Shown: one piece after another, positions 4,343 to 35,280 of the stretch
Numbering within the stretch: the first letter of the stretch is position 1
How the letters are laid out: each line of letters opens with the position of its first letter
Assembly: GCA_964403155.1 (NCBI GenBank)
Contig: CAYOEG010000004.1
Coordinates: 1-60,468 of the forward strand
Reading direction: 5' to 3'
Source: an uncultured Candidatus Saccharibacteria bacterium
Lineage (GTDB): Bacteria > Patescibacteriota > Dojkabacteria > SC72
Length of the DNA: 60,468 bases
Position numbers and translations under genes: made by a program
The notes under the pieces: model-generated
The model's input: the letters and a program-made list of their open reading frames with translations, nothing else
Told to the model about the DNA's origin: nothing
Database searches by the model: none

Positions 4343-4765
4343 ATGGGACTATATTTAGAACCAAAGAAAAGAAAATTTAGAAAAGAGTTCAGAGGCAGAA
4401 TGGGTGGTGTCGCAACCGCTAATAACAAGCTTGCTTTTGGAGAGTATGGAATGAAGGCTATGGAAAATGGTTGGATTGCAGGAAGAGAGATTGAAGCTGC
4501 TAGAAAAGCTATTACCAACTTCATGAAGAGAAAAGGTAAGGTTTGGATCAAGATATTCCCACACAAGCCTTTCACACATAAAACAGTAAACAGTAAGATG
4601 ATCGGTGGAAAAGGTGCAGTTGAAGGATATGTAGCAGTTGTGGTTCCAGGGACAGTTCTTTTTGAAGTCAGTGGTGTTGATGAGGCTACCGCAAAAGAAG
4701 CAATGAGACTTGGTGGACAGAAATTGTCTATGAAAACTAAGTTTATTGTAAAGACCGGAATATAG
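4343..4765 (+). CDS. rplP: 50S ribosomal protein L16
   Basis: 140 aa with a uL16 core (GREIEAARKAITNFMKRKGKVWIKIFPHKP.T.K). Confidence 0.95.
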   Translation: MGLYLEPKKRKFRKEFRGRMGGVATANNKLAFGEYGMKAMENGWIAGREIEAARKAITNFMKRKGKVWIKIFPHKPFTHKTVNSKMIGGKGAVEGYVAVVVPGTVLFEVSGVDEATAKEAMRLGGQKLSMKTKFIVKTGI

Positions 4766-16824: not shown

Positions 16825-17130
16825 GGGTGCAAGTATCTCTAGATGATTGCTCTTACTACTTAGTAAGGGAGGAAAGTCCGGACTCTATGTCGGTCTCGAA
16901 TATTTCGAGATAGGTGCCAGCGTGAGCTGGGAGGGAGTGATCTTTCGGATAAAAGGGCAACAGAAAGTTATACCGCCTCGTAAGAGGTAAGGGTGAAATG
17001 GTAGTGTAAGAGACTACCGGGTATTGTAGTAATACAATATCGCGTGGTAACCCCCACCTAGAGCAAGGTTTATACCGCTTAGATAGATAATCATCATAAA
17101 CAGAATTCGGCTTATTGGGTACTTGCACAC
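16825..17130 (+). ncRNA. rnpB: RNase P RNA, bacterial type A (compact)
   Basis: It has the conserved blocks GGAGGAAAGTCCGGAC (P4 5' strand), AGGGTGAAATGGTAGTGTAAGAGACTACC (CR-II/III-like) and AAACAGAATTCGGCTTAT (P4 3' strand). P1 pairs GTGCAAGTA at 16828-16836 with TACTTGCAC at 17120-17128. The minus-strand ORF 16856-17128 is therefore spurious. Confidence 0.87.
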
Positions 17131-27409: not shown

Positions 27410-27505
27410 ACGCTGAATTTAGTTAACTGACCATAATATTACTATGAGTATATGATGTCAATAGGAGGAAAATATGATAGAATTACACCCGTAATAATGA
27501 GTTAT

Positions 27506-30199: not shown

Positions 30200-31744
30200 A
30201 TGGAAGATACGCAAAGAAGTGATCTGCTCGGACAAAGACAAGTAAGATTAGACAAACTCGCAGAGCTTAAGAAGTTGGGTGTAGATCCATATCCAGCAAA
30301 GTCATACAGAAATTATTCTAATGGAGAGGTATTAAATAAATTCGGGGAATTTGAGAACAATGAGGTATGTTTAGCTGGTAGAATCACAGCATGGAGAGAG
30401 CATGGGAAATTGGTTTTTGGGAATATTCTTGATCAAAGTGGAAGTATTCAGTTGATGATTAGAGAAGCTGATTTAGTTGAGGATCTTCAAAAAGGATACT
30501 TAGGTTGGGACAAGCTATACCTTCTGGATCTTGCAGATTTCGTTGAATTGTATGGAACGATAGGGAAAACAAGGACGGGGGAAATTACCATTATGGTTAA
30601 GAATGTAAGACTTTTAACCAAAGCCTTGAGACCAATTCCACGAAAATTAGAAAACAAAGAGCAGATATTTAGGAGAAGATATTTGGATTTAGTGGTAGAT
30701 AATGAATCATTAAAGCTTTTTGAAAGGAAAGCGAAATTCTGGCAGGTACAGAGAGATTTTCTTAGAGATCATGGCTTTATGGAAGTAGAGGTGCCTGTGT
30801 TGGAAGCCGTAACTGGTGGTGCGGATGCTGCACCATTCATTACACATCATAATGCTTTGGATCAAGATTTCTATCTTAGAATCTCTACAGAACTGTATCA
30901 AAAGAGATTGATAGGTGGAGGTTATGAAAAGATATTTACATTAGGACCAAACTTCAGAAATGAAGGTATGGATGACGAGCATTTACAGGAATACTATCAG
31001 TTGGAATGGTATTGGGGTTATGCTAACTACAAAGATAATATGCAGTTGGTGCATGATCTATTCTTAGAAATTGCAAACAAGGTATATGGCAAAACTCAAT
31101 TTACAACAAGGGGACATACTTTTGATTTGGCGGATGAGTGGAAAGAAATTGACTATACTTCTGTCATTAAGGAGAGATTTGATATTGATATCTTTAATGA
31201 TTCTGAAGAGAAGATGTTGGGTGTGATTAAGGATAACAATATTGAGATGGGTGGAGAAGTGAATAGAAATAGGATGATTGATACTTTGTGGAAAGCAATT
31301 AGAGCTACTATCTCCGGTCCTGCTTTCTTGGTTAATCAGCCTAAGTTTGTTTCTCCTTTAGCAAAATCGCATCAAGATAATCCTGATTTAACAGAGAGAT
31401 TCCAGGTAGTTATCGCGGGTAGTGAACTAGGTAACGGTTATTCTGAAATCAATGATCCTCAAGATCAATTGGATAGGTTCTTGGAGCAGCAGGCTATGAG
31501 GGATAGTGGTGATTCCGAAGCTCAGATGTTGGATATTGATTTTGTAGAGATGTTAGAATATGGTATGCCTCCTGTAAGTGGTTATGGCCAGAGTGAGAGA
31601 ATTTTCTGGTTCTTAGAAGATATTTCTGGTAGAGAAGGTACTTTCTTCCCACAGATGAGGGTAGAGGTAGAGAATACTACAAAACAGATATACAAGGACA
31701 AGGCCAGATTTAAGGAGAATATTAAAAAGGAAGAGAAGAAATAA
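30200..31744 (+). CDS. lysS: Lysine--tRNA ligase, class II
   Basis: 514 aa with an OB anticodon-binding domain. Class II core: FMEVEVPVLE..GGADAAPF, YLRISTELYQKRL, FRNEGMD, ELGNGYSEINDP and PPVSGYGQSERI. Confidence 0.92.
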   Translation: MEDTQRSDLLGQRQVRLDKLAELKKLGVDPYPAKSYRNYSNGEVLNKFGEFENNEVCLAGRITAWREHGKLVFGNILDQSGSIQLMIREADLVEDLQKGYLGWDKLYLLDLADFVELYGTIGKTRTGEITIMVKNVRLLTKALRPIPRKLENKEQIFRRRYLDLVVDNESLKLFERKAKFWQVQRDFLRDHGFMEVEVPVLEAVTGGADAAPFITHHNALDQDFYLRISTELYQKRLIGGGYEKIFTLGPNFRNEGMDDEHLQEYYQLEWYWGYANYKDNMQLVHDLFLEIANKVYGKTQFTTRGHTFDLADEWKEIDYTSVIKERFDIDIFNDSEEKMLGVIKDNNIEMGGEVNRNRMIDTLWKAIRATISGPAFLVNQPKFVSPLAKSHQDNPDLTERFQVVIAGSELGNGYSEINDPQDQLDRFLEQQAMRDSGDSEAQMLDIDFVEMLEYGMPPVSGYGQSERIFWFLEDISGREGTFFPQMRVEVENTTKQIYKDKARFKENIKKEEKK

Positions 31745-31754
31745 TTATTGTAAT

Positions 31755-31800
31755 TAAAAAGGCCAACCCTCGAGAATATATTGCTATCTGAGGGTTGGCC
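31755..31800 (-). terminator. Intrinsic terminator oriented for the minus strand (ends the GC-rich RNA unit; may also stop lysS)
   Basis: A perfect 11-bp stem pairs GGCCAACCCTC (31761-31771) with GAGGGTTGGCC (31790-31800). On the minus strand the hairpin is followed by TTTTT (complement of the A-run at 31756-31760). On the plus strand no U-tract follows. Confidence 0.7.
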
Positions 31801-32014
31801 CATCTGAACCGTCTCTGTCGAGGCAAAATTTCCCCAGAATTTTGTTGATCAGCTCCGATTCAAATGTCTTTGTTTCCATACAGGTGGTTATAGTGCGGAT
31901 CATCCACAAAGTATGAAAACCATTGTTCTTACTGCAACCATATTGCTCCAATGCATTGATCCTTGTTGAAGAAGACAACGGTCTCCCATTGGCAGGCTTT
32001 ATGGTTTGATATTT

Positions 32015-32110
32015 ACTACACCCGATGGGAATTGAACCCACATATAGGGGAATGAGCCCCATACCTCACCTAGCGAGTGCAGGCAGATGCCGCGCACGGC
32101 GTTGTGTAGC
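32015..32110 (-). other. 96-nt tRNA-like domain inside the GC-rich unit
   Basis: Read on the minus strand. The closing stem is GCTACAC/GTGTAGT (7 bp, one G:U). Hairpin GCCG-TGCG-CGGC is present. The D-arm-like element is CTC-GCTAGGT-GAG. Hairpin TGGGG-CTCATTC-CCCTA has CAU at the anticodon position. The T-arm is GTGGG-TTCAATT-CCCAT. It is not a canonical cloverleaf: there are ~21 extra nt after the 5' strand and 3 extra nt (CGG) before the 3' strand. Confidence 0.3.
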
Positions 32111-32161
32111 GACACCCTAATATTTTATTTTAATGAACAAAAAAAACTGTTAGAACAGGAA

Positions 32162-32190
32162 ATTATAGTATTTGTATGATTATAGGTCAA
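32162..32190 (-). promoter_or_regulatory. Promoter cassette copy A (drives the GC-rich RNA unit)
   Basis: On the minus strand, TTGACC (32190-32185), a 17-nt spacer and TATAAT (32167-32162). It is part of a 34-nt direct repeat with copy B and overlaps the stop codon of the acidic ORF. Confidence 0.55.
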
Positions 32191-32896
32191 TGACAGCAAA
32201 GGGGTCATTCTCTTCATTCTCACAAATCCTGATGGAAGGTAAATGGGTGATTTGTTTAGAGAAATCTTCGTAATCAATAATACCTGTCGAAAATTTGTTT
32301 AAAATTTCTATTGCCAATTTGTCATTATTGAAAATTCCACTCCAAATTTCTTCCATATGATCGAAGGTAGCTTTTAAACGAAGTTTTAAATACTCTGCAA
32401 GGATTAGGTTTGGTGATGTGAGTATAGTTTTAGTATCAGCTTTTTTGTCATCTTCCTGAGTTTCAAGTATCTTGGGGTTCAAACTTATAAATTCTGCTTC
32501 GTCTTTATCAATTCCCAAATTTTCAAGTTTAAGCTCAAGGGTTTCTATTGGACGAAGTAATTGAATAATACTCCCGACTTTACGGCATGAAATATCTCTT
32601 ATTTCAGAAACAATTTGATTTAAAGTTTTCTCTACCGCAGTTGTATTTATATATGACATGTCTCCGAGAGTTTCGATATTTATAGATATTTCTGGAAACT
32701 GGGGAGCCATTTCATTCACAAAATCGTAACCGTTGAAAGAATCGACTTCACCACCATTGATATTGGGAGCAGAAGAACTATCGATTTTTGAAAGAAGTAT
32801 ATTTAAATCTGCAATTTCATCATCAGCTTTTCCGAATGCATTGGTGACTTCATCAGGAAGTGATTCTTCAAGGTATGTTATTTCTCCTTCGGACAT
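32180..32896 (-). CDS. Highly acidic hypothetical protein (238 aa), probably leaderless
   Basis: An uninterrupted 238-codon ORF with 47 D/E versus 20 K/R by hand count. I recognise no motif. A consensus-like promoter ends 8 nt upstream of the ATG and there is no SD. Confidence 0.55.
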   Translation of the reverse strand: MSEGEITYLEESLPDEVTNAFGKADDEIADLNILLSKIDSSSAPNINGGEVDSFNGYDFVNEMAPQFPEISINIETLGDMSYINTTAVEKTLNQIVSEIRDISCRKVGSIIQLLRPIETLELKLENLGIDKDEAEFISLNPKILETQEDDKKADTKTILTSPNLILAEYLKLRLKATFDHMEEIWSGIFNNDKLAIEILNKFSTGIIDYEDFSKQITHLPSIRICENEENDPFAVIDL

Positions 32897-32904
32897 GATA
32901 AGAA

Positions 32905-32933
32905 ATTATAGTATTTGTGTGATTATAGGGCAA
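32905..32933 (-). promoter_or_regulatory. Promoter cassette copy B (drives the acidic ORF)
   Basis: On the minus strand, TTGCCC (32933-32928), a 17-nt spacer and TATAAT (32910-32905). The ATG lies at 32896-32894. Confidence 0.55.
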
Positions 32934-32942
32934 TAGAAATTC

Positions 32943-32998
32943 CTCGACCCTCATCTTTAACAAATTACCTCTAAAGGTAAAAAAAGATGAGGGCCGAG
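32943..32998 (-). other. Long compound hairpin downstream of tRNA(CAG)
   Basis: A 16-bp stem pairs 32943-32958 with 32983-32998, and an inner 5-bp hairpin TACCT-TTAG-AGGTA is present. The single non-Watson-Crick position is an A:C mismatch in plus-strand RNA but a G:U pair in minus-strand RNA, which argues for a minus-strand function. No U-tract follows. Confidence 0.5.
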
Positions 32999-33000
32999 TT

Positions 33001-33037
33001 GAATTGGCGAGAGTGAGGGGGGCACCCTAACCAATTC
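33001..33037 (-). other. Hairpin immediately 3' of tRNA(CAG)
   Basis: GAATTGG (33001-33007) pairs with CCAATTC (33031-33037) across a 23-nt G/C-rich loop. It begins 3 nt after the tRNA 3' end. Confidence 0.4.
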
Positions 33038-33039
33038 TA

Positions 33040-33114
33040 GGCGAGCGAGACAGGATTCGAACCTGTGGTTTCAAGCCTCTGAAGCTTGCGTCATGTCCAC
33101 TTGACTACTCGCTC
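33040..33114 (-). tRNA. Class-I tRNA with anticodon CAG (isotype unresolved; not a canonical tRNA-Leu)
   Basis: Hand fold of the minus strand: GAGCGAG-TA-GTCA-AGTGGACA-TGAC-G-CAAGC-TTCAGAG-GCTTG-AAACC-ACAGG-TTCGAAT-CCTGT-CTCGCTC-G-CC. All stems are perfect and the universal tRNA positions are present. The variable loop is 5 nt, position 37 is A and the discriminator is G73. Confidence 0.8.
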
Positions 33115-33264
33115 TAGCGAGATAAGAAGAGGAAAGATGGTTTTAACAACCAATCCAGGTATGAAGTATACTAATCACTTTTTTGCTGGTTACTGGTGTG
33201 GCCAGAGCTCTCTCTTTTTCTGAATGTCTTCAGTTACTTATCTCTCTTTAAAAGAACAGGAGCA

Positions 33265-33293
33265 ATTTTACCAAATAATATATTATAGGTCAA
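33265..33293 (-). promoter_or_regulatory. Promoter cassette copy C (candidate promoter of the tRNA(CAG) unit)
   Basis: On the minus strand, TTGACC (33293-33288), a 17-nt spacer and TAAAAT (33270-33265). It shares the 13-mer ATTGACCTATAAT with copy A. It implies a ~140-nt leader before the tRNA. Confidence 0.45.
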
Positions 33294-33331
33294 TATCCTT
33301 TAATATATATATTTCTGATATCATTAATGAT

Positions 33332-33691
33332 ATGGAATCCATATCAGATATATTAAAAAATCTAAAACCTCAATCAGAAGAAAAAAAACAACCTCAACCA
33401 GAACTCTTCAACATGGATGAAATAAAGGATAATCCCAAGAGAATGTTTGGAGACAAACATAAATATATCTCTACTGAATATCAAGTATATGGGCTTCGTC
33501 TAGCAGGCAAATTGGGAGACACAAAGCGAACAACAATGTATATAAAGTGGGCGAAAGAGAAACCGAGAGCAATCTTAGAAATGGCTTACAGCTTTACGAT
33601 AGACTATCCGAATGCAAAAGACAAAAGTAAGATATTTATGTGGAAAGTAAAAGAACTAGAAAATGAAAGAAAGAATAAAAAAGAAGAATAA
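33332..33691 (+). CDS. Small basic hypothetical protein
   Basis: The ORF track starts at 33224, but that N-terminal part overlaps the minus-strand promoter copy C and is low-complexity. ATG 33332 (MESISDILKN...) is preferred. I recognise no family. The ATG is embedded in the near-palindrome GATATCATTAATGATATG. Confidence 0.4.
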   Translation: MESISDILKNLKPQSEEKKQPQPELFNMDEIKDNPKRMFGDKHKYISTEYQVYGLRLAGKLGDTKRTTMYIKWAKEKPRAILEMAYSFTIDYPNAKDKSKIFMWKVKELENERKNKKEE

Positions 33692-34487
33692 TTGGAAAGA
33701 AATAATCAAGAAACACCTTGGAATGTATTTCTCGCAAGAGTATATGCATAAGGGACAACTTATATCATGGATTATCTCGGATATTATTAAAATTGCAGGA
33801 TTGTGTTTTGTATGGATAGCCTCTTCAAATATAACGGGAAGTATAGATCAAGGGTATCTAGTTACTTATTACATTCTTATCCTTGTAGTTGGTAGATTAA
33901 TGGCTGATATTACTCCAGAGGAGGGAGTGAGGCAGATTCTTAATGGAAAGTTCTCGAATCTTTTGTTAAAACCGGTAAGCTACATTAACTGTTACATTGG
34001 TAATAATTTAGGTTCAAACCTGTTCAGGTTAATGGTATCTGCACCTGCATTTTTAGGGGGAATGTTTTTAGCGATAAAGTTGGATTTATGGGTAATGGAC
34101 TTTAACCCATATTTAATATTTCTTGCACTAATAGCAGTTATCATGGGGTTTTTAATAAATTTCTTCTTGGGTAGTATCTTTTCCTTGTTAGCGTTTTACA
34201 ATAAAAACATGGAAGGGATGAGAATCTTTTATTTTAATATTGCAGCACTTCTTTCAGGTGAATTTATTCCAATTATCATACTCCCTTTTCTTGCACAGTT
34301 TGTTCTTAAAATGTTGCCTTTTAGGTATACGCTATCGTTTCCGATTGAAATATTAATAGGGAGAATGACGAACTATGATATTTATTCAGGATTTGCAATC
34401 GGGATGATATGGTTAGTTGCTTTGTATTTTATCTACAAAATTCTTTATTCAATAGCCATAAGAAGATATGCAGCAGAAGGTATTTAA
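33663..34487 (+). CDS. ABC-2 family transporter permease (DUF990/COG4587-like)
   Basis: 274 aa with ~6 TM helices. Its size and pairing with a second similar permease fit the two-permease uncharacterized ABC-2 system as I remember it. Confidence 0.55.
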   Translation: MKERIKKKNNWKEIIKKHLGMYFSQEYMHKGQLISWIISDIIKIAGLCFVWIASSNITGSIDQGYLVTYYILILVVGRLMADITPEEGVRQILNGKFSNLLLKPVSYINCYIGNNLGSNLFRLMVSAPAFLGGMFLAIKLDLWVMDFNPYLIFLALIAVIMGFLINFFLGSIFSLLAFYNKNMEGMRIFYFNIAALLSGEFIPIIILPFLAQFVLKMLPFRYTLSFPIEILIGRMTNYDIYSGFAIGMIWLVALYFIYKILYSIAIRRYAAEGI

Positions 34488-35280
34488 ACAAAATATATTT
34501 AGATATTGGAGAATATGGATATTGTGTCTGAAGGCAAGTCTTAAGAAAAGCAAGGCTTACAAAGGAGAAATATTTGTTAGATTTTTGCGTACTATTTTCA
34601 TATTACTTACACAAATACTTCTTCTTTCTGTAGTTTTTGGAAACCAGGAATACCTTGCAGGATGGTCAAGATCTGAAGCATATCTTGTGCTTGGCATTTG
34701 GAATCTCTTAAATTACTCTGGATGGGCATTTTTCGGTGTTAATCTATCTATGTTAGAAAGGCATGTGGTGGATGGCGATTTTGATTTTACTCTTATGAAG
34801 CCAGTTTCTTCTGCATGGCTTACATCTTTTGGTGATTTCTCAATGTATAATTTAATATCGGCTTTATCAGGAGTAATCTTAATTGGATACTATTTTGTAG
34901 CTAATTGGACGACTGTTTCGCTCGTAAATGTGGGCTTTTTCCTTTGTGCATTGATAATCGCAATGCTGATTTGGTACTCAATATATCTATTCTTCGCTAG
35001 TTTTACATTATCTATACCTAGAAATGGATTCATGGGTATAGCAAAAGAGATATTGGGGCTAACCAGATATCCTACTAGTATATATATAGAATCTTTGCAG
35101 TTTGTTTTTTATACTGTAATACCAATTGCTTTTGTTTCCACAATCCCTTCAGAGGTCCTTTTGGGAAGAGTAACACCTTCAGTATTAATATTGGGAGCAG
35201 GAATAGCAATCCTATTATTAAGACTCAGCTATTGGGTTTGGAATATGAATGTTAAGAGGTTTGTAAGTGCTGGTGGATAG
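34468..35280 (+). CDS. ABC-2 family transporter permease (second subunit, COG3694-like)
   Basis: 270 aa with ~6 TM helices. It overlaps the previous permease gene by 20 nt. Confidence 0.55.
   Translation: MQQKVFKQNIFRYWRIWILCLKASLKKSKAYKGEIFVRFLRTIFILLTQILLLSVVFGNQEYLAGWSRSEAYLVLGIWNLLNYSGWAFFGVNLSMLERHVVDGDFDFTLMKPVSSAWLTSFGDFSMYNLISALSGVILIGYYFVANWTTVSLVNVGFFLCALIIAMLIWYSIYLFFASFTLSIPRNGFMGIAKEILGLTRYPTSIYIESLQFVFYTVIPIAFVSTIPSEVLLGRVTPSVLILGAGIAILLLRLSYWVWNMNVKRFVSAGG

Follow-up and report, generated by a model that had tools for sequence, protein, structure and literature searches.

The window analyzed here is a 60,468-nt stretch of contig CAYOEG010000004.1, from a Dojkabacteria genome. 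Between lysS and a conserved gene for a 118-aa protein (orf118), it carries about 1.5 kb organized on the minus strand as three units: a tRNA unit with anticodon CAG (unit 1), an acidic 238-aa open reading frame (ORF; unit 2, orf238), and an RNA of ~400 nt with a tRNA-like core (unit 3). The content of this junction varies even among genomes whose lysyl-tRNA synthetases (LysRS) are 93–96% identical. We put at about even the chance that this 1.5 kb is the window's version of a dispensable and hypervariable slot for stable-RNA genes, subject to birth-and-death turnover of spare tRNAs.

The lysS-orf118 junction among relatives

Relatives were gathered by a LysRS scan of species-representative genomes, which led to metagenome-assembled genomes of Candidatus Dojkabacteria (WS6; candidate phyla radiation, CPR), and 80 loci were added from a metagenome scan with the 118-aa protein as the query. 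Loci are designated below by handles (L001 and so forth). The gene order trmD-greA-glyS-lysS-(slot)-orf118-ABC2-ABC2-DHH-serS is conserved among related loci. Slot sizes were evaluated at the 95 loci that carry both lysS and the 118-aa gene. The two genes lie at most 165 nt apart in 60 of these, mostly 30–90 nt. Minus-strand RNA cassettes of 360–780 nt occupy the junction in 24 loci, and unrelated protein genes do so in the other 11, among them a YhcG/DUF1016 nuclease, a CYTH plus NUDIX/wHTH pair, and ORFs that are weakly ParB_N-like or peptidase-like. Since either RNA cassettes or unrelated protein genes fill the same gap, the junction is a general insertion hot spot. The RNA cassettes are those of one Dojkabacteria sub-clade; the unrelated protein genes belong to other lineages.

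The variation extends to conspecific genomes. In contigs L086 and L087, the flanks are 95.7% and 98.7% identical, and a 402-nt cassette is precisely present in the one and absent from the other. The L086 segment (2586–2987) is a whole promoter-to-terminator tRNA-Thr(UGU) cassette; at the empty site of L087 (2465–2468), the deletion junction shows ATTT microhomology alone. The cassette is dispensable within a species. These comparisons bear out the initial annotation of the window, which had taken the segment to be accessory and had proposed a synteny check: lysS and the 118-aa gene adjoin in most related loci. The same annotation placed the 1.5 kb between lysS and a pair of ABC-2 permease genes. 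The lysS side was correct; the right-hand neighbor is the 118-aa gene, which had been missed. Searches of Pfam, PHROGs, PADLOC, and NCBIfam returned no family match for this gene.

The tRNAs found in the slot differ in anticodon and state between loci (Table 1). In the same species, the tRNA-Glu(CUC) gene 5′ of trmD serves as a control: it is 87–100% identical between them, always has the same anticodon, and encodes CCA, as compared to a mean identity of 59% for slot tRNAs. Many slot tRNAs score 52–76 bits with the Rfam tRNA model, on par with housekeeping tRNAs; the weak ones are L035, at 29.8 bits, and L084, L089, L006, L007, and L101, which fall below the threshold. The Gly-type (U73, CCA, NCC anticodons) and Thr-type (NGU anticodons) members are coherent and resemble working tRNAs. 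Orthologous bodies with shifted anticodons are seen in L114 (CAU) versus L057 (CAC), in L004 (UCG) versus L005 (GGU), and in the Gly-type body of L167 (AUC). Most relatives have the tRNA unit alone; it is accompanied by a further RNA unit, unit B, in L093, L007, and L006, and by the ORF in L164 and L167. The two tRNAs of L167 (1407–1482 and 1505–1580) are a canonical-looking tRNA of 67.7 bits with the amber anticodon CUA, labelled ‘Pyl’ by ARAGORN, and the Gly-type body (U73, CCA) with AUC. At L114 3522–3601 and L057 7804–7881, another tRNA-like element lies within the leader helix (AACAAGG/CCUUGUU); it has an extended, bulged anticodon stem and terminates in ACC-U.

Table 1. Anticodons (ARAGORN) and state of the slot tRNAs.
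Locus	Anticodon	State
Window	CAG	
L164	UUC	
L004	UCG	
L005	GGU	
L008	UUG	
L057	CAC	
L114	CAU	
L084	GGA	class-I body
L099	UGA, plus GCC	UGA on class-I body
L085, L092	UGU	
L088	CGU	
L090	UCC	
L107	GCC	
L167	CUA, plus AUC	AUC on Gly-type body
L035, L093		8-nt anticodon loops
L089		15-nt anticodon loop
L006, L007, L101		degenerate

The tRNA of the window itself differs from that of its closest relative. No genome found is closer to the window than L164, whose LysRS, GlyRS, and SerRS each share 96% identity with their window counterparts. In the slot, identity between the two is 87% for the promoter, 74% for the leader end, and 76% for trailer hairpin 1, as compared to 44% for the tRNA. The tRNAs of L164 and of L093, a more distant locus, share 76% identity; the window tRNA is 44–45% identical to both. 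Because the flanks match those of L164 and the L164 and L093 tRNAs match each other, we conclude that the resident tRNA was swapped for the CAG tRNA in the window lineage. The swap spans tRNA positions 1–73 and left in place the leader end (...CUCGCU) and the trailer start (CCUAGA). In L164, the resident tRNA has anticodon UUC. The unit 1 leader end, CUCGCU-A (33115–33121, −), repeats the 3′ acceptor strand of the tRNA, CUCGCUC (33042–33048, −), and can therefore pair with the tRNA 5′ strand; at the leader/tRNA junction, L164 carries UCUCGCUCG (4668–4678). The leader-end repeat and UCUCGCUCG may be a trace of the route by which the tRNA body was swapped.

Variability may reach past the RNA slot, since the second ABC-2 permease (window 34468–35280, +), at 64–87% identity in relatives with LysRS 93–96% identical, is far more variable than its neighbors.

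Promoters, RNA units, and orf238

Each of the three units is preceded by a promoter-like site (Table 2). The 13-mer ATTGMCCTATAAT has three minus-strand copies (33294–33282, 32934–32922, and 32191–32179), a number reached in 0 of 100 dinucleotide shuffles. In a consensus scan, the region's three top promoter-like sites were TTGACC-17-TAAAAT, TTGCCC-17-TATAAT, and TTGACC-17-TATAAT, with scores of 10–11/12. P2 and P3 are the two copies of a 33-nt direct repeat, which match at 31/33 positions, lie 743 nt apart, and enclose orf238, whose final codons and stop fall within the second copy. The orf238 promoter is evidently a duplicate of that of unit 3. In the cassette family comparison, every slot unit opens with ATTGACC(N)ATA...-17-TAtAAT. 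The initial annotation had described three near-consensus sigma70-type promoters with 17-nt spacers, a well-formed class-I CAG tRNA followed by two hairpins, an acidic 238-aa ORF, and an RNA of ~400 nt carrying a tRNA-like core and a terminator readable on the minus strand only. All of this was reproduced; its position for the first 13-mer was exact, and those for the other two were off by one. The promoter of the housekeeping tRNA-Glu(CUC) gene (window 27420–27505, +), CTGACCATAATATT...TATGAT, resembles the slot promoter (TTGACCTATAATAT...); the leader of this tRNA lacks the boxA-like motif described below.

Downstream of the promoter, nearly all cassettes have the motif YGUUCUUUUAAA(UAGA) 5–7 nt past the −10, and this spacing is fixed in ~20 species. 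The slot motif (GUUCUUUUAAA) resembles the boxA of ribosomal RNA operons (rrn), which is UGCUCUUUA in E. coli (PMC2724277), with GYTCTTTAANA as the consensus (PMC5725501). The L057 cassette motif is an exact match to this consensus. In the window, the unit 1 copy, UGUUCUUUUAAAG, shows a single substitution and an additional U; the unit 3 copy reads UGUUCUAACAG. Within 1.5 Mb of loci, all from the same neighborhood, the composite of promoter and boxA-like motif occurs only in the slot, and it occurs in 0 IMG/VR contigs. It is the conserved position of the motif, not sequence enrichment, that argues for a boxA-like element.

The tRNA of unit 1 scores 65.2 bits with the full-length Rfam model RF00005 (gathering score 29 bits). 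Its minimum free energy (MFE) structure is a clean cloverleaf with perfect Watson-Crick stems, canonical D- and T-loops, and canonical bases at all tertiary-pair positions; the body includes GAGCGAGTAGTCAAGTGGACATGAC. For the whole unit, the MFE fold (z = −6.2) comprises a single-stranded 5′ motif, the leader helix, the cloverleaf, and two hairpins. Across cassettes, the leader-closing helix is of the type AUAACAAGG/CCUUGUUAU and is followed by the tRNA, the trailer hairpins, and the terminator. The loop of trailer hairpin 1, GGUGCCCCCCUCAC (33013–33026, −), is partly complementary to GGUGAGGUAUGGGG (32057–32070, −), which lies in the unpaired portion of the tRNA-like element of unit 3. Relatives lack a matching site for GGUGCCCCCCUCAC/GGUGAGGUAUGGGG, and this complementarity may be due to chance.

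The anticodon of this tRNA would read the Leu codon CUG. In E. coli, the major determinant for LeuRS is A73, and bacterial tRNA-Leu are of class II, with a long variable arm and G37 (m1G37). The window tRNA has instead a 5-nt variable loop (AAACC), a discriminator G (...CUCGCUC-G-CC), and the anticodon loop UUCAGAG, which places A at position 37; A76 is not encoded. By known bacterial rules, G73, A37, and the short variable loop make it a poor LeuRS substrate, and we infer that it is not charged by LeuRS. A single change separates the anticodon from CUG (Gln) or CCG (Arg). Nine syntenic genes contain 11 CUG codons, at which orthologs have Leu or Ile/Val/Met, much like other Leu codons, and CTG makes up 3.9% of the Leu codons in 70 window ORFs, as compared to 2–10% in relatives without a CAG tRNA. 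A dedicated link between the CAG tRNA and orf238 was rejected, since orf238 contains 0 CTG codons. Based on CUG positions, CUG usage, and the CTG-free orf238, there is no sign of CUG reassignment or of a client gene in this small sample of 11 codons.

Unit 3 folds with z = −3.9 over its ~400 nt. Its core consists of an acceptor-like stem, 9 unpaired nt in place of the D-arm, an 8-bp hairpin at the anticodon stem, and a canonical T-arm, and thus differs from the complete cloverleaf scoring >29 bits expected with RF00005. The 5′ acceptor strand, GCACUCG, and the 3′ strand, GUGGGUUCAAUUCCCAUCGGGUG, both match the tRNA-Gly of L107; the 5′ strand of the Gly-type slot tRNAs is GCACCCG. The T-arm with the 3′ acceptor strand reads GUGGGUUCAAUUCCCAUCGGGUGU versus GUGGGUUCAAAUCCCAUCGGGUGC in the Gly type; the D- and anticodon arms are lost, and L006 retains the same T-arm relic. 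These likenesses mark unit 3 as a Gly-type tRNA unit in decay. Homology to unit B of L093, L007, and L006 covers the unit 3 promoter, degenerate boxA-like start, and terminator, the terminator hairpin included; the bodies are unalignable. The first 121 transcribed nt differ from L001 at 4 positions (K = 0.034). In the same comparison, dS of the adjacent orf238 is 0.485, and K in the region upstream of the ORF is 0.41. Two of the substitutions keep or improve pairs: U.G to U-A in the GC-rich hairpin and G.U to A-U in the T-stem. The low K relative to dS and the preserved pairing suggest purifying selection on the 5′ part of unit 3.

Other identities for unit 3 were considered. A 92-codon ORF lies within it (31784–32062, −), from the tRNA-like core to the terminator, and is probably a chance ORF. 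A coding gene was rejected because this ORF has no homolog or self-match in the protein collection and is without an equivalent in the related unit B RNAs, which are stop-rich. A tmRNA, including the permuted form, was rejected on the absence of an ARAGORN or Rfam call, A3-U70 in place of G3.U70, and the lack of conservation of the body. SRP RNA, 6S RNA, and other Rfam families gave no match at E ≤ 10 save the sub-threshold tRNA.

The product of orf238 was compared with its L001 homolog, to which it is 85% identical. With dN/dS of 0.14 and 55 of 90 differences at third positions, orf238 is a real gene. Its ATG follows the −10 by 8 nt in the window and L001 and by 10 nt in L164, with no Shine-Dalgarno sequence; the mRNA is apparently leaderless. 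An exhaustive HMMER search yielded four further relatives, with identity down to 25–30%. P0003 (54%) occupies the same slot of L164–L166, past the tRNA unit and overlapping the lysS stop; P0004 (32%) follows the two tRNAs in the slot of L167; and P0006 lies outside the slot, among cell-envelope genes. The family, as found, is tiny and Dojkabacteria-specific. Where the neighbors are 96% identical, an identity of 53% implies either that the gene evolves very fast or that one allele has replaced another. Pfam, PHROGs, PADLOC, NCBIfam, and a PDB profile search returned no significant match, and the sub-threshold matches were limited to Stonustoxin helical and MTIP/EF-hand-like entries at E 0.04–0.1. 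A first AF2 model was poor (pLDDT 55). A 6-sequence AlphaFold model is confident (pLDDT 82, pTM 0.75) and has long helices and a small sheet, and its best Foldseek match in the PDB had E = 0.18, with TM ≤0.3.

Table 2. Features of the lysS-orf118 region, in window coordinates.
Feature	Position	Strand	Basis and remarks
lysS (class II LysRS)	30200..31744	+	Conserved left slot boundary; Pfam tRNA-synt_2 + OB fold; syntenic in ~95 loci
Unit 3 intrinsic terminator	31756..31800	−	Long hairpin 31800-31761 + UUUUU; T-run on minus strand only
Unit 3 RNA 3′ body	31801..32016	−	Lineage-specific; no detectable homolog
tRNA-like element without D-arm	32017..32080	−	Acceptor-like stem, 8-bp hairpin, T-arm; Rfam tRNA 19.8 bits, sub-threshold
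GC-rich hairpin GGGUGUCGC...GCGGCAUCU	32085..32117	−	Fold; L001 substitution turns U.G into U-A
Degenerate boxA-like start CCUGUUCUAACAG of unit 3 RNA	32147..32159	−	Motif comparison
33-nt repeat copy 2 = promoter P3 (TTGACC-17-TATAAT)	32159..32191	−	1 substitution/33 nt versus L001
orf238, acidic, 238 aa	32180..32896	−	47 D/E versus 20 K/R; stop inside repeat copy 2
33-nt repeat copy 1 = promoter P2 (TTGCCC-17-TATAAT)	32902..32934	−	Repeat search and promoter scan
Trailer hairpin 2, 16-bp stem	32943..32998	−	Compensatory changes; terminator-like in L093, with UUUUU after it; no T-run here
Trailer hairpin 1, C-rich loop GGUGCCCCCCUCAC	33001..33037	−	Loop identical in L164 and L093; outer stem sequence differs in each
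Class-I tRNA, anticodon CAG, G73, A37	33040..33114	−	ARAGORN; Rfam tRNA; followed by CC-U, not CCA
Structured leader, closing helix GAGAGAUAAG/CUUAUCUC abutting tRNA	33115..33247	−	MFE fold; L164, L093, and the L085 group keep the helix but not its sequence
boxA-like UGUUCUUUUAA	33248..33258	−	Predicted 5′ end of unit 1 RNA; putative function
Promoter P1 (A-TTGACC-17 nt-TAAAAT)	33265..33294	−	Divergent from 118-aa gene; same placement in ~20 related species
Conserved 118-aa gene (orf118)	33335..33691	+	Right slot boundary; divergent from P1; function unassigned

Elsewhere in the window, a bacterial class A RNase P RNA (16829–17130, +; 154.7 bits) has a −10-like box, TAGTATAAT, directly 5′. The GC content of the window is 35.5%, and the stop codons of its 70 ORFs of at least 100 aa are 48 TAA, 20 TAG, and 2 TGA.

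Interpretation and alternatives

As we read it, the region would comprise three independent transcription units, each presumably transcribed from its own copy of the strong sigma70-type promoter found in this lineage. Units 1 and 3 would belong to one noncoding RNA family, built of promoter, boxA-like 5′ end, leader helix, tRNA or tRNA relic, trailer hairpins, and terminator. The boxA-like start probably recruits Nus factors, enabling RNA polymerase to read through the long untranslated RNA, and the tRNA or tRNA-like element is probably a site of RNase P/Z-type processing that sets the pieces free. The slot tRNA would be a supernumerary gene, a coherent Gly or Thr tRNA in some species and anticodon-shifted or decaying elsewhere; in the window lineage, the resident would have been replaced between conserved flanks by the structurally perfect class-I CAG tRNA. 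Given its poor fit to LeuRS and the lack of any trace on CUG usage or meaning, the CAG tRNA would be a spare with little or no decoding role. The modules (tRNA unit, unit B, and ORF) would be gained, lost, duplicated, and swapped, most likely through homologous recombination, for which the conserved flanks and the repeated promoters would serve as sites. Finally, orf238 would be a fast-evolving gene that shares the slot, is expressed from the duplicated unit 3 promoter, and is apparently leaderless. The initial annotation had seen one promoter serving three unrelated products in a self-contained cassette. This view was not supported: units 1 and 3 are both tRNA-unit derivatives, P2 duplicates P3, and the units occur separately among relatives.

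Several points weigh against the reading of a slot for spare tRNAs. A canonical cloverleaf behind a strong promoter, together with the constraint on unit 3, suggests more function than that of a spare. No parent body was found for the CAG tRNA, nor was its parent isotype identified, and its redundancy, like the decoding of CUG by a canonical tRNA-Leu encoded elsewhere, is presumed from a view of the 60-kb window. The low divergence of unit 3 could reflect a recombination boundary instead of selection. The boxA-like motif is AT-rich and shows no enrichment across the window, and since the 180 sequences include no rRNA gene, it was compared with the published consensus, not with rrn leaders of its own lineage.

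The tRNA and tRNA-like modules could have been retained for their shape and not as decoders, serving as RNase P/Z processing or stability handles, or as decoys or spares against tRNA-targeting toxins, with the anticodon free to drift or diversify; the hairpin with the C-rich loop, for example, might act as a small regulatory RNA. In several relatives, anticodon and body are uncoupled (class-I bodies with GGA or UGA, a Gly-type body with AUC, the anticodon CUA, and loops of 8 or 15 nt), with the cloverleaf or T-arm kept. Most odd slot tRNAs are without an encoded CCA, as opposed to the housekeeping tRNAs of the lineage. The loop of trailer hairpin 1 is kept with a species-specific outer stem, unit 3 looks constrained and retains the acceptor/T-arm minihelix only, and hypervariability between near-identical genomes is often a trait of conflict loci. 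However, leaders and trailers are poorly conserved past close relatives, the Gly- and Thr-type members are coherent (U73 with CCA and NCC; NGU) and resemble ordinary tRNAs, no toxin or nuclease gene is linked, and no target is established for the C-rich loop. We consider this explanation unlikely. Quite improbable, in our estimate, is a working missense tRNA, charged with an amino acid other than Leu, that would render CUG ambiguous; it would be a one-step derivative of tRNA-Gln(CUG) or tRNA-Arg(CCG), and relatives would carry missense or nonsense suppressors. The perfect cloverleaf, its canonical tertiary-pair positions and 65.2-bit score, the near-consensus promoter, and the amber-anticodon tRNA of L167 are in its favor, as are G73, G10, A20, and A37, which we take to fit a Gln- or Arg-type parent by the E. 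coli identity sets. Position 35, here the mutated base, is nevertheless critical for GlnRS/GluRS and ArgRS, A76 is not encoded, and CUG in conserved genes stands at Leu or other aliphatic positions, is used as in relatives without a CAG tRNA, and is absent from orf238. The same CUG data speak against the decoding-modifying role raised in the initial annotation.

Simple decay has also to be weighed: the RNA units would be functionless, decaying tRNA duplicates kept because the divergent 118-aa gene needs the promoter region, and orf238 alone would be functional. To this explanation we assign a low probability. Many slot tRNAs are degenerate, the cassette is dispensable within a species, and unit B sequences of different lineages do not align in their middle part, all as decay would predict. 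Yet unit 3 evolves ~14 times slower than adjacent synonymous sites with pairing preserved, terminators and the boxA-like start are retained in all units, and the window tRNA is without any decay; the genomes are small and dense, and the same junction is elsewhere only 30–90 nt. The initial annotation had favored a mobile or phage-derived module for tRNA-based counter-defence made up of all three units, a proposal we find hardly credible even though the content is accessory and variable and an acidic protein beside tRNAs recalls anti-defence cargo in resemblance only. The units are separate in relatives, and the flanks are core genes in conserved order. BLAST against phage genomes gave no match for the region, and four pattern scans of IMG/VR gave none or chance matches. 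An 18-mer match in L170 was dismissed as a phage link, as it lies inside a coding region, and it and nine 17-mer matches were taken as chance. PHROGs and PADLOC revealed no phage or defence similarity, and the slot has no integrase or att-type repeat, the L087 deletion junction showing ATTT microhomology alone; plasmids were not searched.

The retention of a perfect, strongly promoted, and identity-incoherent tRNA, and of class-I Ser-anticodon, amber, and expanded-loop tRNAs in relatives, prompts a bolder proposal, which is unlikely on present evidence: the slot may be a tRNA diversification locus, with strongly expressed, rapidly exchanged tRNAs whose anticodons are uncoupled from identity. 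They would serve as missense or nonsense suppressors, or as toxin-resistant spares or decoys, in conflict with phages, hosts, or competitors, and orf238 would be part of the same system.

Relation to known systems

The slot is a variant of three known kinds of system: accessory tRNAs with shifted anticodons, leaders of the boxA type, and flexible genomic islets. Phages and mobile tRNA arrays are well-known carriers of accessory tRNAs. As in bacterial and phage tRNA arrays, the slot copies are supernumerary and dispensable, with isotype mismatch between anticodon and body (CAG on a class-I body); unlike these arrays, the slot is a single fixed chromosomal site between core genes of a reduced CPR genome and not a mobile-element array. 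The orthologous slot bodies with different anticodons resemble remolded (alloacceptor-shift) tRNA genes, whereas the window body was replaced outright and not point-mutated. With replacement-type flexible genomic islets, the slot shares a single junction with unrelated content, sharp boundaries, conserved flanks, and no mobility genes. It differs in that its cargo consists largely of small RNA genes and not of surface or defence proteins, and in that its modules share a repeated promoter able to mediate duplication and deletion.

With regard to rrn leaders carrying boxA and Nus-dependent antitermination, the likeness lies in GUUCUUU(U)AAA just past a strong promoter, heading a long untranslated structured RNA, and in the leader helix that follows the motif. 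The slot motif, however, heads tRNA and noncoding RNA units at the extreme 5′ end of the RNA, its window copy has one extra U, and that of unit 3 is degenerate; the likeness is one of sequence and position. Unit 3 also recalls tRNA-like processing modules of the tRNA-punctuation or mascRNA type in having an acceptor-like stem on a T-arm (GUGGG-UUCAAUU-CCCAU) within a longer RNA. The acceptor/T-arm minihelix is the minimal shape for RNase P, RNase Z, and the CCA-adding enzyme. Unlike those modules, the unit 3 element is the relic of a Gly-type tRNA and not a dedicated one, the resemblance being that of sequence and fold. Like tmRNA, including the two-piece permuted form, unit 3 is ~400 nt long, has a tRNA-like part without a D-stem, and has its own promoter and terminator. 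It differs from tmRNA in its A3-U70 pair, in the lack of CCA, in a tRNA-like part that is contiguous and 5′-proximal, and in a body that is not conserved even among close relatives, with no tmRNA call.

A literature search on tRNA oddities in Dojkabacteria and Patescibacteria yielded archaeal-type Tyr/Trp identities only and nothing on the lysS slot, and we encountered no account of a reduced CPR genome with a chromosomally fixed slot whose entire tRNA units are exchanged among near-identical genomes. The ARAGORN labels tRNA-Leu, Ser, Pyl, and Asp for slot tRNAs rest on the anticodon alone and are probably wrong. If real, the boxA-like start on units other than rRNA would extend Nus-dependent antitermination to small accessory RNA genes. 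If the odd slot tRNAs are uncharged, the slot would show the pace at which redundant tRNA genes are born, re-targeted, and decay, with relics kept as RNA structure modules. If they are charged, bacteria with minimal translation machinery would possess natural tRNAs for mistranslation or suppression.

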